Virus genome (UHGV): UHGV-0175553
Length of the DNA stretch: 13,868 nt
Source of the DNA: a virus
Reading direction: 5' to 3' (one strand)
Shown here: positions 9,861 through 13,496 of the stretch, one piece after another
Position numbering within the stretch: position 1 is the first letter of the stretch
How the letters are laid out: every line of letters begins with the position of its first letter
The notes under the pieces: generated by a model
What the model saw: the letters and a program-made list of their open reading frames with translations, nothing else
Told to the model about the DNA's origin: nothing
The model's database searches: none
Translations under genes and position numbers: made by a program

Positions 9861-10628
9861 ATGGCTAACATTAACTCCCTTCGCAAGCTGTCTGATACCG
9901 ATAAAACCAACGTAAAACGTGGTAACGCATATCGCATTGATCCGCGTATCATCAAGATTCGCCCGGGTCATAACCCACGGGGTGTGTTTACCGACAACTA
10001 CTGGGAAACTGAAGCAGCACTGGCACACATTGAAAACTTTCGTCAGGCTTATACCAACGGCGATTTCGTTCCACCGATCGTGGTACAGGTTGTTGACGGT
10101 GTTCCGTATGTCCAGGATGGTGAGCATCGTTTACGTGGCGTATTGGCAGCTATTGAGGCCGGGACGCCGATTCTGACAGTAGACGTTGTTGAATCATCTG
10201 GTGATGAACTACAGCAGACCCTGACACTATTAAAAGGTAATGAAGGTAAACCGTGGTCACCTGTTGAACGTGCTGTTATTTACGGTCGTTTCCGTTCATA
10301 TGGCATGAGTGTTGAGCAGATCGCTACACAGGTCGGTAAAACCGTCCAACATGTTTACGAACAACTGAATATTCTTGATATGCCGCTGGAACTTAAACGT
10401 CGGATCCAGAATGGTGAAATCAGCGCGTCAGCAGCCATACGCCAGTTTAAAGCAGGTGATAAAGAACCAGTAGTAACGCGTCGTCCACCTGCTAAACTAG
10501 TACGATCTGCAGTGGAAGCAATCCGTGGTGAATGGTCTGTAACCCGTTCGGAAGGTGGTAAAGTCCTGGTTGAACTCACCACTGAACAGTTCGAAGCGTT
10601 AAAAGCACTGAAGGAGCACCAGTTATGA
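9861..10628 (+). CDS. ParB/Srx-fold (ParB N-terminal domain) protein with HTH
   Basis: 255 aa. ParB box-like VQDGEHRLRGVLAA (GxxRxxA arginine-finger motif) followed by an HTH-like MSVEQIATQVGKTVQHVYEQLNIL. Confidence 0.7.
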   Translation: MANINSLRKLSDTDKTNVKRGNAYRIDPRIIKIRPGHNPRGVFTDNYWETEAALAHIENFRQAYTNGDFVPPIVVQVVDGVPYVQDGEHRLRGVLAAIEAGTPILTVDVVESSGDELQQTLTLLKGNEGKPWSPVERAVIYGRFRSYGMSVEQIATQVGKTVQHVYEQLNILDMPLELKRRIQNGEISASAAIRQFKAGDKEPVVTRRPPAKLVRSAVEAIRGEWSVTRSEGGKVLVELTTEQFEALKALKEHQL

Positions 10629-10795
10629 AAACTATGTCAGACAACTTAACATCAATTTACGGTACGTTGACCTGTCGTTCTAAATTTAAACCGTTGACAA
10701 AAGAAGAAGAACGTCAGTGTAAGTTCAATAACAGTTTTCCCAGCGTTAATGAAAATCGTTGGATTGCCAAACTAACCGGGAGTAAAAAGAAATGA
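10625..10795 (+). CDS. Hypothetical small protein (56 aa)
   Basis: Not in ORF track (short). ATG 10625 overlaps the ParB-like stop (ATGA); its own stop overlaps the next ATG (10792). Translation MKTMSDNLTSIYGTLTCRSKFKPLTKEEERQCKFNNSFPSVNENRWIAKLTGSKKK. Supported only by coupling geometry. Confidence 0.35.
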   Translation: MKTMSDNLTSIYGTLTCRSKFKPLTKEEERQCKFNNSFPSVNENRWIAKLTGSKKK

Positions 10796-11007
10796 GTGAT
10801 AAATATGAAAAACTCGACAAATTGATTTTGAATAGAATTGGCAACCGATACATTCCTTTTTGTGACATATTTGAAGGTGCTATATTTGAAGAATGCGATC
10901 GGCTTACTGGCAATGAACCAGCCTGTGTTCTGGATCGTCGTTTACAAGCACTGAAAAAGAAAGGTTTAATTATTTCATGTCGCGGTAAAGGATGGGTGAA
11001 AGTATGA
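10792..11007 (+). CDS. Hypothetical protein (71 aa), possible winged-helix-like C-terminus
   Basis: ORF with coupled start; C-terminal LDRRLQALKKKGLIISCRGKGW resembles a winged-helix wing, but this is weak. Confidence 0.5.
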   Translation: MSDKYEKLDKLILNRIGNRYIPFCDIFEGAIFEECDRLTGNEPACVLDRRLQALKKKGLIISCRGKGWVKV

Positions 11008-11228
11008 CTATCCGACTGATGAATCCAACAGTTGCCCGTGATATTAAACCAGGTGACAAGATTGAAGTATTTAACGAATGGTATTGGGTACGTTATATCA
11101 ATTACCACGGGGCAACACTTACCCTTCGCTTACAACCGGAAGATGAACCGCTATCACCATTTTGTGAAAACGACCGCGTTGTGGTGACAGTACCAGAAGA
11201 TCTAATGATTGATGTCGAGGTGCGTTAA
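11004..11228 (+). CDS. Hypothetical protein (74 aa)
   Basis: Preferred start ATG 11004 (ATGA overlap with upstream stop) rather than the track's 10992. No recognisable motif. Confidence 0.45.
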   Translation: MTIRLMNPTVARDIKPGDKIEVFNEWYWVRYINYHGATLTLRLQPEDEPLSPFCENDRVVVTVPEDLMIDVEVR

Positions 11229-11648
11229 ATGACTGTGTACGAAATGGAAGGTTTTCTTCGTGGTAAATGTGTTCCGGGCGACCTGAAAGTTAACGAAACA
11301 AACGCTGAATATCTGGTACGCAAATTTGCTGAAGCGGAGGCCAAGTGCGCGGCGCTGGTTGCGGAGAATGCGGGGCTGAAGAAGTTCTGCAAAGACGCTG
11401 CATTCGATGCTGATTACGAAGCCGAGCTTGGTATGGAGCGTGGTGGATTCAGTGATGCGCTTAACGAAATCAAAACCCCAGCCACCGATGCTTTTCTGGC
11501 TGAAGTGCGTGCGCAAGGCGTGGATATGGCTCGTAACGCGATGATTGATTTTGTTGATGGTGAAGTTGGGCCAAACAAGAACGTTCCGGGGCTGATTAGA
11601 GGCGCAGAGATATGCGTAAGTATTGCTGAACAGCTTCGTAAAAGGTGA
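11229..11648 (+). CDS. Hypothetical protein (139 aa), Ala-rich, with an internal GC-rich segment
   Basis: RBS GAGGTG 7 nt upstream of ATG 11229, which directly follows the previous stop. Internal segment (about 11330-11540) is compositionally distinct from neighbouring genes. Confidence 0.6.
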   Translation: MTVYEMEGFLRGKCVPGDLKVNETNAEYLVRKFAEAEAKCAALVAENAGLKKFCKDAAFDADYEAELGMERGGFSDALNEIKTPATDAFLAEVRAQGVDMARNAMIDFVDGEVGPNKNVPGLIRGAEICVSIAEQLRKR

Positions 11649-11652
11649 GTTC

Positions 11653-11916
11653 GTGTATGAGTATCAGACTAACAGGTTCCCTCGTAACGGTTTGAAGTGG
11701 TCCGCACGAGATCTGGCGTTATTAAAAATTAATGCAGGAAAGATCAGTGCGGATGAAATAGCGTATTACCTTCGCCGGGACGTTGAAGCGGTGCACATTA
11801 AAGCGTCACGTCTCGGTATATCACTGGTGACCAATAAATGTAAACGTGGTCATGCGCGAGTTTACCAAAAAGGTAGATGGCGCTGTCCTGATTGTAGAAA
11901 ATTAAAAGGGTATTGA
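11653..11916 (+). CDS. Putative DNA-binding protein with HTH-like region and C-terminal zinc-ribbon-like motif
   Basis: Preferred GTG start at 11653 (RBS AAAAGG 7 nt upstream, just after the upstream TGA at 11646-11648); the track's start at 11623 is a TTG inside the previous gene. WSARDLALLKINAGKISADEIAYYLRRDVEAVHIKASRLGISL is HTH-like; CKRGHARVYQKGRWRCPDCRK is C/H-x-n-CxxC zinc-ribbon-like. Confidence 0.5.
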   Translation: MYEYQTNRFPRNGLKWSARDLALLKINAGKISADEIAYYLRRDVEAVHIKASRLGISLVTNKCKRGHARVYQKGRWRCPDCRKLKGY

Positions 11917-11918
11917 AT

Positions 11919-12152
11919 ATGAAAATTAAAAACATGGCTGCAAGTGGTCTGTCAGGCCGTATCTTTTACGGTACGATGGAAACAAAAGACGGTGGTCAGT
12001 CTGGTAAATGGTTAGCAGGAAAGCAAGACGTTACTGATATGGCGATCCGTGCAGTTGCTGAACATTGTCTTCTGACAGGGAACAAATATTCATTTACACT
12101 TAACGACGGTCGTGTGATTACACTGGCAGTAACAGAGGTACAACCATCATGA
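11919..12152 (+). CDS. Hypothetical protein (77 aa)
   Basis: Preferred ATG at 11919 (RBS AAAAGGG about 9 nt upstream); the track's 11913 start is a TTG. Stop overlaps the next gene's ATG (12149). Confidence 0.5.
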   Translation: MKIKNMAASGLSGRIFYGTMETKDGGQSGKWLAGKQDVTDMAIRAVAEHCLLTGNKYSFTLNDGRVITLAVTEVQPS

Positions 12153-12718
12153 CACCTGAACAATTCGCAACAGCAGCACACGGTGATCAACTTCGTAAGT
12201 ACACCAACGACCCATATGTGAACCACTGCCGGAACGTTGCTGAACTGGTTAAACGCTATGGTGGTACGCCGGATATGGTTACCGCTGCCTGGCTACATGA
12301 CGTCGTTGAAGATACGCCCGTGACCGTGGGTGATGTGTGTTCGCAGTTCGGTGAGACTGTGGCACGTTATGTTGATCAGCTTACTGATGTGAGTCGTCCA
12401 CACCACGGTAACCGTGTTAAGCGTAAAGCACGGGACATCGACCATTTATCACGGGCTGAACCTGTGGTAAAAACCATAAAACTGTGTGATCTGCTGGATA
12501 ACACCTATTCAATTGTCCGACACGATCCGAAGTTTGCTGTAACGTACCTGGCTGAAAAACAACTCATGCTTGCTCATCTGTCAGACGCAAGCAACCAGGA
12601 GTTATACGCACTTGTTGAGCGTGAATTGTTTAAAGCCAAATACAAACTAACGAACGTCCAGTTGACCGCGTTTGACAAACACTACGACGCACTGGTTAAA
12701 GCGATGGGGGAGCTGTGA
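12149..12718 (+). CDS. SpoT/Mesh1-like HD-domain small alarmone hydrolase (putative (p)ppGpp/(p)ppApp pyrophosphohydrolase)
   Basis: 189 aa. AAHGDQLRKY...DPYVNHCRNVA...AAWLHDVVEDT...IKLCDLLDN reproduces the RelA/SpoT hydrolase-domain signature (H-x2-Q-x-RK, PY-x2-H, LHDvvEDT, KLxDxLxN), i.e. the H...HD...D metal ligands. Size matches single-domain SAHs. Confidence 0.8.
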   Translation: MTPEQFATAAHGDQLRKYTNDPYVNHCRNVAELVKRYGGTPDMVTAAWLHDVVEDTPVTVGDVCSQFGETVARYVDQLTDVSRPHHGNRVKRKARDIDHLSRAEPVVKTIKLCDLLDNTYSIVRHDPKFAVTYLAEKQLMLAHLSDASNQELYALVERELFKAKYKLTNVQLTAFDKHYDALVKAMGEL

Positions 12719-13031: not shown

Positions 13032-13249
13032 TTGCAGATAACTTACTGTGTAAACTACGTGCGGATCTGATTAACAAAAGGTTTTGTCGTGATATAAACA
13101 AACCACTGGCATTTGTAAAAGTGCTCAACGTCTACAGAGCAGGTCGTGGTTTTAAGGTTATGTTCAGATACGGTGATGACGGTCCTGTCGTATATTGCGG
13201 TTATACCAATTTTTTGAAACGTTACCCAGAGGAACTAACACATGAATAA
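13028..13249 (+). CDS. Hypothetical protein (74 aa)
   Basis: Preferred start ATG 13028 (ATGA overlap with the upstream small ORF); the track's 13007 start is a TTG. No recognisable motif. Confidence 0.45.
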   Translation: MIADNLLCKLRADLINKRFCRDINKPLAFVKVLNVYRAGRGFKVMFRYGDDGPVVYCGYTNFLKRYPEELTHE

Positions 13250-13496
13250 AGCATCGCCTGTAGAAATACGTAAGTGTCTTGAAATGGTAAACAGTCTTGC
13301 ACATGCCGGGATTAGATTTGTTCCTATACCGGTAACCAGTGATGATGAATTTAATTCGCTGGTTTCTCATTCTTACGGGATACTGGACAAAATAGTAGAC
13401 GATTTTGACACCGCTAACCGCCAGTTCGAAAGCCTCAGCAACCACAAACATCACTTCATCAACGGCACTTGCGTAGAGTGCCTGAAAAGTGAATAA
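13242..13496 (+). CDS. Hypothetical protein (84 aa)
   Basis: ATG 13242 with RBS GAGGAA 8 nt upstream. Last gene of the plus-strand operon, followed by a terminator-like hairpin. Confidence 0.55.
   Translation: MNKASPVEIRKCLEMVNSLAHAGIRFVPIPVTSDDEFNSLVSHSYGILDKIVDDFDTANRQFESLSNHKHHFINGTCVECLKSE

Follow-up and report, generated by a model that had tools for sequence, protein, structure and literature searches.

The DNA analysed here, referred to below as the window, is a 13,868-nt stretch from a 9NA/Sasha-like siphovirus whose best matches are 536P12, KarinMuster, PDP46 and AVIO78A. It contains an EaE-like early accessory gene of 139 codons, flanked by a ParB-like gene and an HD phosphohydrolase gene; the next gene begins with a GTG start at 11653. 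An ORF for a DUF2737 protein lies 430 bp upstream, and in P22-like genomes such as SE16 and the ES9 prophage, synteny places a DUF2737 gene directly upstream of the EaE-like gene. The locus can be divided into the following features:

10625-10795 (+): DUF2737 ORF (PF10930, 25.2 bits with a cut-off of 25)
11229-11648 (+): EaE-like early accessory ORF, 139 aa, phrog_614, bearing the GC anomaly
11229-11321 (+): resident 9NA/Sasha-like backbone 5' part, codons 1-31; 23/23 informative sites (11234-11321) are backbone-type
11286-11321 (+): patch P0, KVNETNAEYLVR, nucleotide sequence common to backbone and temperate alleles; the left crossover is at its 3' end
~11329-11638 (+): block of ~310 bp, codons ~34-137, of temperate P22-like/lambdoid prophage type by identity and informative sites; read below as imported
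11331-11390 (+): GC3 spike of 20 codons (35-54), GC3 0.85 and GC 65%, the core of the anomaly
11337-11381 (+): patch P1, EAKCAALVAENAGLK, 45 nt with core EAKCAALxAENAGLK, nucleotide-conserved family-wide; proposed recombination joint
11382-11474 (+): variable middle module M, KFCKDAAFDADYEAELGMERGGFSDALNEIK, GC3 ~0.43
11475-11522 (+): patch P2, TPATDAFLAEVRAQGV, second nucleotide-conserved proposed joint; amino acid identity 0.86 between alleles with unrelated M modules
11523-11627 (+): variable C-terminal module, DMARNAMIDFVDGEVGPNKNVPGLIRGAEICVSIA, one of 48 C-module types
11628-11642 (+): patch P3 (EQLRK), where the right crossover lies; temperate to PDP46/backbone switch at 11639
11639-11652 (+): backbone-type 3' end, from the informative-site switch at 11639, with the stop codon TGA at 11646-11648

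In a PHROG profile search the ORF matches phrog_614 (E 2.1e-46, residues 1-138), and its similarity to EaE-like proteins (PHROG 614, P22-like EaE) is full-length. It has 7,577 homologues at E <= 1e-3. Labels given to homologues in annotations are EaE, Eae-like or YfdS family. The last of these labels is the PGAP annotation of a prophage homologue; the ORF itself has no NCBIfam match, the YfdS model included, and no Pfam family at E <= 0.1, including PF13935 (Ead_Ea22) and PF04448 (DUF551). With no match in Pfam or NCBIfam, membership in YfdS (CPS-53 prophage)/DUF551 was rejected, as was identity with a known anti-phage defence protein, since no PADLOC defence-system family matches at E <= 0.1. 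A sequence search of the PDB returned nothing significant.

The AF2 model of the 139-aa protein is all-helical, with predicted helices at residues 23-66, 84-110 and 120-138 and a mean pLDDT of 68 (moderate confidence). Confidence peaks over patch P1, the values by block being 78 (residues 31-40), 86 (41-50) and 77 (51-60). A heptad core can be read from the sequence as L29-F33-A36-C40-L43-N47-L50-C54-A57, and P1 would encode the a/d core (C40, L43, N47, L50) of the predicted central coiled coil. At this moderate pLDDT, the model shares the layout of Ead_Ea22, in which a short N-terminal part is followed by a central coiled coil and then by a C-terminal domain that varies.

The original prediction drew attention to the base composition of this gene, placing 11341-11520 at about 60% GC against about 30-45% in flanking genes. 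The anomaly is real and beyond chance, but its level was overstated: the segment has 56.1% GC (61.7, 53.3 and 53.3% in 60-nt blocks), and the flanking genes have 36-44%. The low-GC comparator at 10801-10860, given as about 28%, measures 28.3%. Positions 11330-11540 have 56.4% GC versus a window mean of 45.4%, which is ~2.9 SD over the mean of 211-nt windows, and only 0.1% of these are as high. The sole other equally GC-rich region is at about 1987-2281 (2032-2281 among 211-nt windows), where GC1 is 0.81 and GC3 is 0.27, so that its richness is purely amino acid driven. The idea that Ala-rich composition accounts for part of the anomaly in the EaE-like gene holds as well: by codon position, the GC excess of 11331-11540 is +0.045 at first, +0.008 at second and +0.061 at third positions, and Ala makes up 24% of residues in the GC-rich segment versus 9% elsewhere.

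The third-position component stands out after amino acid control. Codons 37-100 have a GC3 of 0.56 versus 0.33 expected from their own amino acids and the codon usage of the window (z 4.2), the largest excess among 2,683 64-codon windows of the whole stretch. The sliding GC and GC3 analysis proposed along with the original prediction was carried out with this control, the ‘genome-wide’ distribution being that of the related KarinMuster genome (50 kb; 15,637 codons) plus the 13.9-kb window itself, in place of the phage's own full genome. None of 10,487 64-codon KarinMuster windows reaches the corrected GC3 excess of the anomaly, and thus the segment lies outside the range into which it was to fall if the prediction were mistaken. 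At the 20-codon scale, the peak has a z of 5.7 versus backbone usage, and 0/14,041 KarinMuster windows are as high; against E. coli and temperate-phage usage, the z of the spike is 3.2 and 3.4, respectively. Outside the spike, GC3 is at background, 0.43 in codons 55-100 and 0.38 in codons 101-139. The proposed switch to GCG, GAG, AAG and CTG codons follows the same boundary: it is strong in 11331-11390 (12/14, versus 23% elsewhere in the window, p = 1.4e-6) but absent in codons 55-104 (6/21, p = 0.6).

As was also suggested, the segment and its flanks were submitted to BLAST separately, and different phage lineages were returned. Discordant best relatives and mappable breakpoints, found with both informative sites and BLAST pieces, bear out the proposal of a mosaic segment. 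On the left, 11229-11285 is 96.5% identical to Sashavirus 536P12 and 61% identical to the prophage allele. In 11329-11638, sub-blocks share 95.6-99.1% identity with P0010, an allele from an E. coli prophage (L118:4001-4438), compared with 0.9-70.6% for the backbone alleles 536P12 and PDP46, except in patch P2 (11475-11522), where PDP46 has 81%. On the right, 11634-11670 is 94.6% identical to PDP46 versus 51% to the prophage allele. P0010 sits in a P22-like early-left region with Erf, Anti-RecBCD, the EaE-like gene, Ead_Ea22, DUF551 and integrase. In megablast, the E. coli ES9 prophage aligns as one 306-bp piece (11337-11642) with 96.1% identity. A match covering 11337-11528 relates the M region to EaE of the P22-like Salmonella phage SE16 (93.8% nucleotide identity), and over 11473-11642 the identity is 98.2% with the Eae-like gene of phage Cyrano and 95.3% with a P1-like phage-plasmid isolate.

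Informative sites are of temperate type over 11329-11348 and 11361-11638 and of backbone type from 11639, placing the left breakpoint between 11321 and 11329 and the right one at ~11638/11639. The left edge originally drawn at 11330 coincides with the breakpoint; the right edge at 11540 was too short, and the block extends ~100 bp past it. The interruption in the informative sites is a single backbone-type codon, GTT (11358-11360), which calls for an additional event, for patchy repair of a heteroduplex or for a donor allele outside the sample. The ORF ends with TGA in the window where PDP46 and the Sasha-like allele P0005 have TGT.

Matches to the block occur in 819 of 5,426 complete E. coli genomes. 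The GTDB species-representative genomes contain only distant relatives, which come from Enterobacter, Citrobacter, Escherichia, Kluyvera, Leclercia and others and have <= 56% amino acid identity when the whole module is compared; two short partial matches at query residues 45-68 reach 78%. Among these representatives, a GC-rich donor genus for the window's allele was not found.

The notion of a higher-GC source is only partly right. The block has 53.2% GC and a GC3 of 0.495, close to the temperate-phage expectation of 0.479 (z 0.3) and above the backbone value of 0.37, so the donor pool has a modestly higher GC content. Without its 20-codon spike, however, the block has a GC3 of 0.38-0.43, which is not clearly unlike the backbone, and the third-position shift comes down to 20 codons that are just as anomalous in donors. 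EaE of SE16 carries the same spike, also with a peak GC3 of 0.85, so donor-type alleles are outlying too. The spike belongs to a conserved patch in the sequence of this gene family and is no fingerprint of a GC-rich donor genome.

Comparison of alleles across the family reveals how the gene is organized. Its plan is an N module, P1, an M module, P2, a C module and P3, with P0 in the N module of many alleles. The patches are 15-48 nt long and conserved even at synonymous sites, and the modules between them are interchangeable and often unrelated. P0 includes a 29-nt run identical across the window, Sasha-like and P22-like alleles and is present in 49 loci (within 20% mismatches); P2 is present in 103 loci, and P2 alone also matches genes annotated ead/Ea22-like at the DNA level. 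Nearly all C modules terminate in (A)QLRKGGNQ. Across 2,584 allele pairs whose M modules are unrelated, synonymous codon identity reaches 0.74 in P1 and 0.70 in P2 versus 0.39 in the intervening sequence. Among 85 distinct alleles, for example, codon 46 in P1 is GAG in 80 and codon 43 is CTG in 74. With amino acids controlled, the GC3 excess relative to an allele's own locus is +0.205 for P1 and +0.114 for P2, and the patches are enriched in 95-96% of 84 alleles, a proportion that does not represent 84 independent observations because the family members share patch ancestry. The variable modules of the same 84 alleles are slightly GC3-depleted relative to their own loci. P0 and P3 are as conserved, yet AT-rich (GC 0.39-0.40); GC-richness is thus not a general trait of the joints.

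Reassortment of the modules is extensive. The 104 sampled alleles comprise 81 N-M-C combinations, and four-gamete quartets are seen; the M type of the window occurs in 36 of the 104, where it is combined with N-terminal modules of 12 types and C-terminal modules of 20. Sister phages have other modules between the same patches, or the EaE-like gene is missing. In the Sasha-like allele P0005, the left junction is inside P1. Each patch is found once per locus, with no repeated copies that could act as paralogous exchange partners. The sampled EaE-like alleles also include one that bears an HNH sequence (L071).

These observations favor, with a probability of about 0.82, the reading that the GC-rich stretch forms the 5' portion of a ~310-bp block gained by homologous recombination from a gene of a temperate P22-like/lambdoid phage or prophage. 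The EaE-like gene of a 9NA/Sasha-like E. coli siphovirus would have recombined with the corresponding temperate gene, with crossovers at the end of P0 and within P3, and the G/C-ending codons would belong to P1, the core of the predicted coiled coil. Nearly all temperate-phage P1 alleles are GC3-rich and resident Sasha-type P1 alleles are more A/T-ending; thus, a fresh import stands out against a backbone of 44-45% GC. Most probably, the patches act as joints in homologous recombination and would be the substrates of these exchanges. Homologous breakpoints can only be placed between informative sites, and junctions will therefore always map to conserved stretches; for this reason, the coincidence of junctions with patches is no independent proof that the patches promote exchange. 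Distribution and composition, rather than a rooted phylogeny, suggest that the transfer was from a temperate phage to a Sasha-like phage.

Other explanations differ in what they make of the composition. If nothing had been imported, the GC peak could simply reflect an Ala/Glu/Gly-rich coiled coil combined with chance codon choice. About 40% of the GC excess does come from first codon positions, consistent with the high Ala content, and the region at 1987-2281 is an example of a GC peak with a purely amino acid origin. Nevertheless, the corrected GC3 z-scores of 4.2-5.7 lie above all of the KarinMuster windows of either size, the codon switch is highly significant, and the recombinant block is seen directly in the informative sites and the identity to the prophage allele. 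As a sole cause, composition plus chance is refuted by the z-scores and informative sites, leaving this account highly improbable. A different possibility, compatible with import, is that recombination itself gave P1, and less markedly P2, their G/C-ending codons, by GC-biased mismatch repair or gene conversion in heteroduplex. GC-biased gene conversion has been proposed for bacteria. Exchange would also homogenize the joints, and the patches are far above the modules in synonymous identity; only P1 and P2 are GC3-enriched relative to their own loci, and the modules have been extensively reassorted. However, P0 and P3 are the conserved crossover sites of this particular gene and are AT-rich, and P1 and P2 include several fully conserved synonymous sites with A/T endings (AAT 69/85, GCT 78/84, GAA 82/84). 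We consider this origin of the codons unlikely. The broader proposal that P0-P3 are in-frame recombination joints kept at the nucleotide level, with the GC3 enrichment as a footprint of GC-biased conversion, is tentative, and only slightly less doubtful.

Conservation of synonymous sites in P1 and P2 well above baseline might instead point to a function of the nucleic acid, whether an RNA structure, a DNA site or an overlapping or antisense gene, which would account for both the conservation and the GC-richness of P1. In the window, the antisense frame is indeed open across the whole ORF, but 1-8 stops interrupt it in relatives and it matches no PHROG, and an antisense gene was rejected on these grounds; a long overlapping gene is also excluded because the conserved stretches are 45-48 nt and are split by unrelated sequence. 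Furthermore, a scan of the whole window found no Rfam family at gathering score, 11320-11540 folds as RNA no better than shuffled sequences do (z +0.39), and there is no Chi site (GCTGGTGG) anywhere in the window. Near-matches to Chi exist in the GC-rich segment. Overall, a nucleic-acid function is improbable. Marginally more so is transfer in the reverse direction, in which the block was born in 9NA/Sasha-like phages and given to temperate prophages. Several Sasha-like contigs do contain the same allele or alleles 96-98% identical to it (P0001-P0009). On the other hand, the M and C modules are widespread in P22-like/lambdoid phages and prophages, including those in the 819 E. coli genomes, and the M type is common among sampled alleles and occurs in many combinations; close Sasha-like relatives have different modules or no such gene, and the GC3 of the block fits temperate phages and not the backbone.

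With import from a temperate phage as the preferred reading, the case is one of ordinary phage mosaicism, with a small twist in where the GC signal is located, and the current understanding of such mosaicism is unchanged. The value of the example is mostly methodological: a local GC3 spike flagged a true recombination breakpoint, partly for the wrong reason. The signal came from an intrinsically GC3-rich conserved patch instead of the donor's bulk composition, and most of the imported DNA is compositionally invisible. The analysis also documents a flow of gene fragments between temperate P22-like/lambdoid prophages and a 9NA/Sasha-like siphovirus; members of the latter group have been isolated and used as lytic phages, so this flow is relevant to the choice of phages for biocontrol. 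The EaE-like family provides a tidy example of intragenic domain shuffling and could serve for studies of how much homology phage recombination requires. Should the tentative reading of joints and GC-biased conversion be true, the family would be a compact natural system for biased conversion and minimal homology in phage-phage recombination, in which short homology cassettes let virulent and temperate enterobacterial phages exchange domains of early accessory proteins.

The closest known counterpart is EaE from the early-left ‘ea’ region of P22-like phages (Lederbergvirus). Homology is full-length, with 76% amino acid identity to SE16 EaE, and the P22-like genes and related prophage genes (annotated by PGAP as ‘YfdS family phage-associated protein’ or ‘hypothetical protein’) have an upstream neighbour of the same type, a DUF2737 gene. 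Unlike these, the window's gene is in a non-lambdoid 9NA/Sasha-like siphovirus, and its first 19 codons are backbone-specific; SE16 EaE differs further in having a 21-codon insertion before P1 and another C module. Early regions have been described as highly mosaic, and gene 31 of epsilon34 is an in-frame fusion of the eaE N-terminus with an HNH endonuclease (PMC2629481); both ea22 and eaE genes have been described as mosaic in-frame fusions (PMC10834534, PMC2629481).

Ea22 of lambda and Stx phages (Ead_Ea22; PF13935, IPR025153) is likewise an early accessory protein, encoded in the exo-xis/ea region, and resembles the EaE-like protein in its short N-terminal part, central coiled coil and swappable C-terminal domain; this family is explicitly mosaic (PMC10834534). 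Homology between the two was rejected: hhalign of an alignment of the EaE-like family against the PF13935 protein adjoining the prophage allele gave a probability of 0.15%, and PF13935 itself was not matched. The C-terminal module in the window is predicted to be all-helical, whereas the C-terminal domain of lambda Ea22 is mixed alpha/beta (PMC10834534). Lambda Ea22 forms tetramers and has pro-lysogenic activity (PMC10834534), a role with no obvious meaning in the window's phage group, where relatives are described as lytic isolates. If lambda Ea22 is a guide, the EaE-like protein is probably an early protein that forms oligomers and contacts host or phage partners through its variable modules.

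At the level of evolutionary process, the comparison is with the modular evolution of lambdoid phages, for which short conserved joints have been set against random illegitimate exchange followed by selection. As in those phages, unrelated modules are flanked by conserved stretches, module combinations are many and four-gamete quartets testify to reassortment. Here, however, the conserved stretches fall within a single ORF instead of marking gene boundaries, their conservation extends to synonymous sites, two of the stretches show GC3 enrichment, and the exchange joins temperate phages to a non-lambdoid siphovirus.

By its best DNA matches (Sashavirus 536P12, KarinMuster_Bas82, PDP46 and AVIO78A), the window belongs to a 9NA/Sasha-like E. 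coli siphovirus; KarinMuster has been described as a Nonanavirus related to phage 9NA of Salmonella (PMC11990801). Small accessory ORFs are strung between the ParB-like and HD phosphohydrolase genes, and the set varies among sister phages. Searches of Pfam, NCBIfam, PADLOC and the PDB returned no match for the 139-aa ORF at 11229-11648 (plus strand). It is matched over its full length by phrog_614 (E 2e-46), and its relatives are annotated as EaE/Eae-like in P22-like phages, while those in E. coli prophages carry the label ‘YfdS family’ or hypothetical. The full-length profile and DNA similarity place it among the EaE-like genes; it does not qualify as a member of Pfam Ead_Ea22, of YfdS/DUF551 or of a known defence family. 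Part of the ORF is matched in 819 of 5,426 complete E. coli genomes, at least 80% of it in none.

A close relative, Sashavirus BDX09P1, has no EaE-like ORF where the window has 11218-11668, so the gene is dispensable within the phage group. The stop codon TGA (11646-11648) is TGT in PDP46 and in a Sasha-like allele, P0005, whose ORFs are four codons longer and so extend over the GTG with which the next gene begins (11653, 87 aa); this single-base difference thus gives a shorter protein here and no overlap. On the minus strand, the in-phase antisense frame of 11229-11648 runs through all 140 codons in the window without a stop. In relatives this frame contains 1-8 stops, and it matches no PHROG, so it is open by chance and is not a gene.

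Measurement confirms the original prediction of high GC inside the ORF, though at lower values and over a shorter stretch than predicted. Against a window mean of 45.4% and 36-44% in the genes next to the ORF, GC is 56.1% over 11341-11520 (60-nt blocks 61.7, 53.3 and 53.3%) rather than the predicted 60% or so; the low-GC comparator 10801-10860, put at about 28%, measures 28.3% and falls within a second mosaic insertion (10796-11003). GC of 11330-11540 is 56.4%, which exceeds the 211-nt window mean by about 2.9 SD and is reached by only 0.1% of such windows. In codons 37-100, GC3 is 0.56, whereas 0.33 would be expected for these amino acids at the codon usage of the window's other 22 ORFs (z 4.2, top of 2,683 windows). 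As a genome-wide stand-in we used 50 kb of the related phage KarinMuster (85 CDS, 15,637 codons, GC3 0.37). With amino-acid composition controlled in the sliding comparison, the excess of the segment is reached by 0 of 10,487 64-codon KarinMuster windows and that of its peak by 0 of 14,041 20-codon windows; the anomaly lies outside this distribution and is therefore real.

The third-position effect is limited to a narrow spike, codons 35-54 (11331-11390), where GC3 is 0.85 versus 0.29 expected (z 5.7; the spike was chosen as the scan maximum, making its z-values post hoc). Outside it GC3 is at background level (0.43 in codons 55-100, 0.38 in codons 101-139). Likewise, the proposed switch to GCG/GAG/AAG/CTG holds in the spike (12/14, p = 1.4e-6) but not in codons 55-104 (6/21, p = 0.6). 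By codon position, the GC excess of 11331-11540 is +0.045, +0.008 and +0.061, the first-position share being contributed to by Ala (24% of residues), as had been suggested. The only other equally GC-rich region, 1987-2281 in the minus-strand gene 1816-2568 (up to 58.9%), codes for a linker rich in Pro, Ala and Val (PAPAVPAAPVAPVVPAAPAAPVAPV), where GC1 is 0.81 and GC3 just 0.27; that peak is purely amino-acid-driven, a useful internal contrast to the spike.

The features of the ORF referred to below are as follows.

Conserved patches and imported block in the EaE-like ORF (all plus strand)
11286-11321: patch P0, short, conserved and AT-rich
11329-11638 (approximate): imported block
11337-11381: patch P1, codons 37-51, EAKCAALxAENAGLK, conserved down to synonymous sites
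11475-11522: patch P2, codons 83-98, TPATDAFLAEVRAQGV, conserved down to synonymous sites
11628-11642: patch P3, EQLRK, short, conserved and AT-rich

When segment and flanks were compared separately by BLAST with fetched loci, different relatives were found. Similarity to sister phages covers 11004-11370/73 (91-93%) and resumes from 11630-11676, whereas the segment is matched by EaE of the P22-like phage SE16 (11337-11528, 93.8%) and the Eae-like gene of Cyrano (11473-11642, 98.2%). A P22-like prophage of E. coli strain ES9 covers 11337-11642 as a single piece (96.1%). A protein search identified P0010, an E. coli prophage allele of 145 aa whose amino-acid identity to the entire ORF is 94%; its locus is a typical P22-like early-left region (Erf, Anti-RecBCD, EaE-like allele, Ead_Ea22, HNH, DUF551, integrase). 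In a map of informative sites comparing the window with P0010 and backbone (9NA/Sasha-like) alleles, all 23 sites up to 11321 are of backbone type, those at 11329-11348 and 11361-11638 are of temperate type, and backbone (PDP46) type resumes at 11639. Within the block, identity to P0010 is 95.6-99.1%; it is 61% over 11229-11285 and falls to 51% past 11634. Together these define an imported block of roughly 310 bp, so that the predicted left edge (11330) stands and the right edge (11540) moves about 100 bp outward. The lone backbone-type codon within it, GTT (Val44, 11358-11360), is at a residue that is Ala (GCT/GCA/GCG) in most family members; it may stem from heteroduplex repair that was patchy, from a second exchange or from a donor allele outside the sample. 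P0005 fuses a Sasha-type P1 to the window's M module, placing its left junction inside P1.

Family diversity was sampled from 80 IMG/VR loci and 26 loci of GTDB species representatives encoding relatives of the segment, from which 103 usable ORFs were extracted and codon-aligned with the window's ORF. The patterns used to find the loci were degenerate back-translations, which did not select for synonymous sites. Some codons are nearly fixed: GAG (80/85) and AAT (69/85) at codons 46 and 47 in P1, GCT (78/84) and GAA (82/84) at codons 91 and 92 in P2. Across 2,584 allele pairs with an unrelated intervening region (16% amino-acid identity), same-residue codons are identical at 0.74 in P1, 0.70 in P2 and 0.39 between them. 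With locus-specific codon usage and amino-acid control, GC3 excess is +0.205 in P1 and +0.114 in P2 (enriched in 95% and 96% of 84 distinct alleles); the variable modules N, M and C are slightly depleted. When the parts between patches are clustered, they fall into 43 N types, 34 M types and 48 C types, which occur in 81 combinations; the window's M type is paired with 12 N and 20 C types. Four-gamete quartets are seen for M x C (8) and for N x C (4).

Homologous exchange of the phage's EaE-like gene with a temperate-phage allele, for example during growth in a lysogen, is the best-supported account. On this account the crossovers fall where the alleles share sequence, one at the end of P0 and the other within P3, and the spike is P1 in its temperate-type version. 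Junctions can be mapped only to conserved stretches, so their overlap with the patches is not independent proof that patches promote exchange. Amino-acid composition or chance as the cause is rejected by the corrected GC3 scans and the informative-site map, and no support was found in the window for a hidden RNA or Chi site, nor for an overlapping gene. Reverse transfer, from backbone phage to temperate phages, is unlikely given distribution and composition.

The mosaic reading is supported; the proposed higher-GC source only partly so. Relative to codon usage pooled from 37 temperate-phage loci, GC3 of codons 31-135, covering the block, is as expected (0.495 versus 0.479, z 0.3), and it is not far from the value expected with the usage of sampled E. 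coli core genes (0.542, z -1.0); with the backbone at 0.37, a modestly more GC-rich donor pool is supported. The spike is an outlier on every background (z 3.4 with temperate usage, 3.2 with E. coli usage; just 0.01% of 20-codon E. coli windows reach z of at least 3), and SE16 EaE, whose overall GC3 is 0.47, has the same peak (0.85). The temperate-type P1 of the import is conspicuous because resident Sasha-type P1 alleles are more A/T-ending (e.g. GAA AAT AAA TGT versus GAG GCC AAG TGC). GC-biased repair in recombination joints is an attractive explanation for the GC3-richness of P1 and P2, but the AT-rich P0 and P3 and the A/T-ending codons conserved inside P1 and P2 speak partly against it; equally possibly, slow-changing patches retain an older, more GC-rich state.

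Among neighbouring genes, the ORF at 10792-11007 (71 aa, 36.6% GC, phrog_7185) is 90% identical to the Salmonella 9NA-like phage FSL SP-062. The phage's closest relatives from E. coli, namely KarinMuster, 536P12 and PDP46, lack it (10796-11003), and their homology jumps from 10795 to 11004. Small ORFs at 10625-10795 and 13242-13496 match DUF2737 (PF10930, barely above cut-off) and DUF1382 (PF07131), both typical of lambdoid/P22-like ea/exo-xis regions; thus, this end of the 9NA/Sasha-like genome gathers temperate-phage accessory genes. An HD-domain phosphohydrolase (12149-12718, PF13328 HD_4), with relatives annotated as polyphosphate hydrolase or RelA/SpoT-like, and the preceding DUF7446 ORF (11913-12152) are conserved across 9NA/Sasha-like relatives.

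An AlphaFold2 model built with a 50-sequence alignment is all-helical and moderately confident (mean pLDDT 68; helices 23-66, 74-80, 84-110 and 120-138), with highest confidence over P1 and P2. The 3-4 heptad spacing of L29-F33-A36-C40-L43-N47-L50-C54-A57, read from the sequence, suggests that P1 is probably the core of a coiled coil with a buried Asn. Lambda Ea22 has an N-terminal segment, a central coiled coil and a swappable C-terminal domain, and is tetrameric at full length (PMC10834534); the predicted architecture of the ORF resembles it, although profile searches detect no sequence relationship with Ead_Ea22.

The ORF adds one more recombinant to a gene family already known to be mosaic. 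Mosaicism of ea22 genes is established (PMC10834534), and so are fusions of eaE in frame and the strong mosaicism of early regions in P22-like phages (PMC2629481); a 289-aa allele on an IMG/VR contig, with an HNH-endonuclease-like C-terminal module in frame after P2, recalls the eaE-HNH fusion of epsilon34 gene 31 (PMC2629481). Particular to this case are a host genome that is 9NA/Sasha-like and not lambdoid, and intragenic joints that are conserved at synonymous sites, two of them GC3-enriched.
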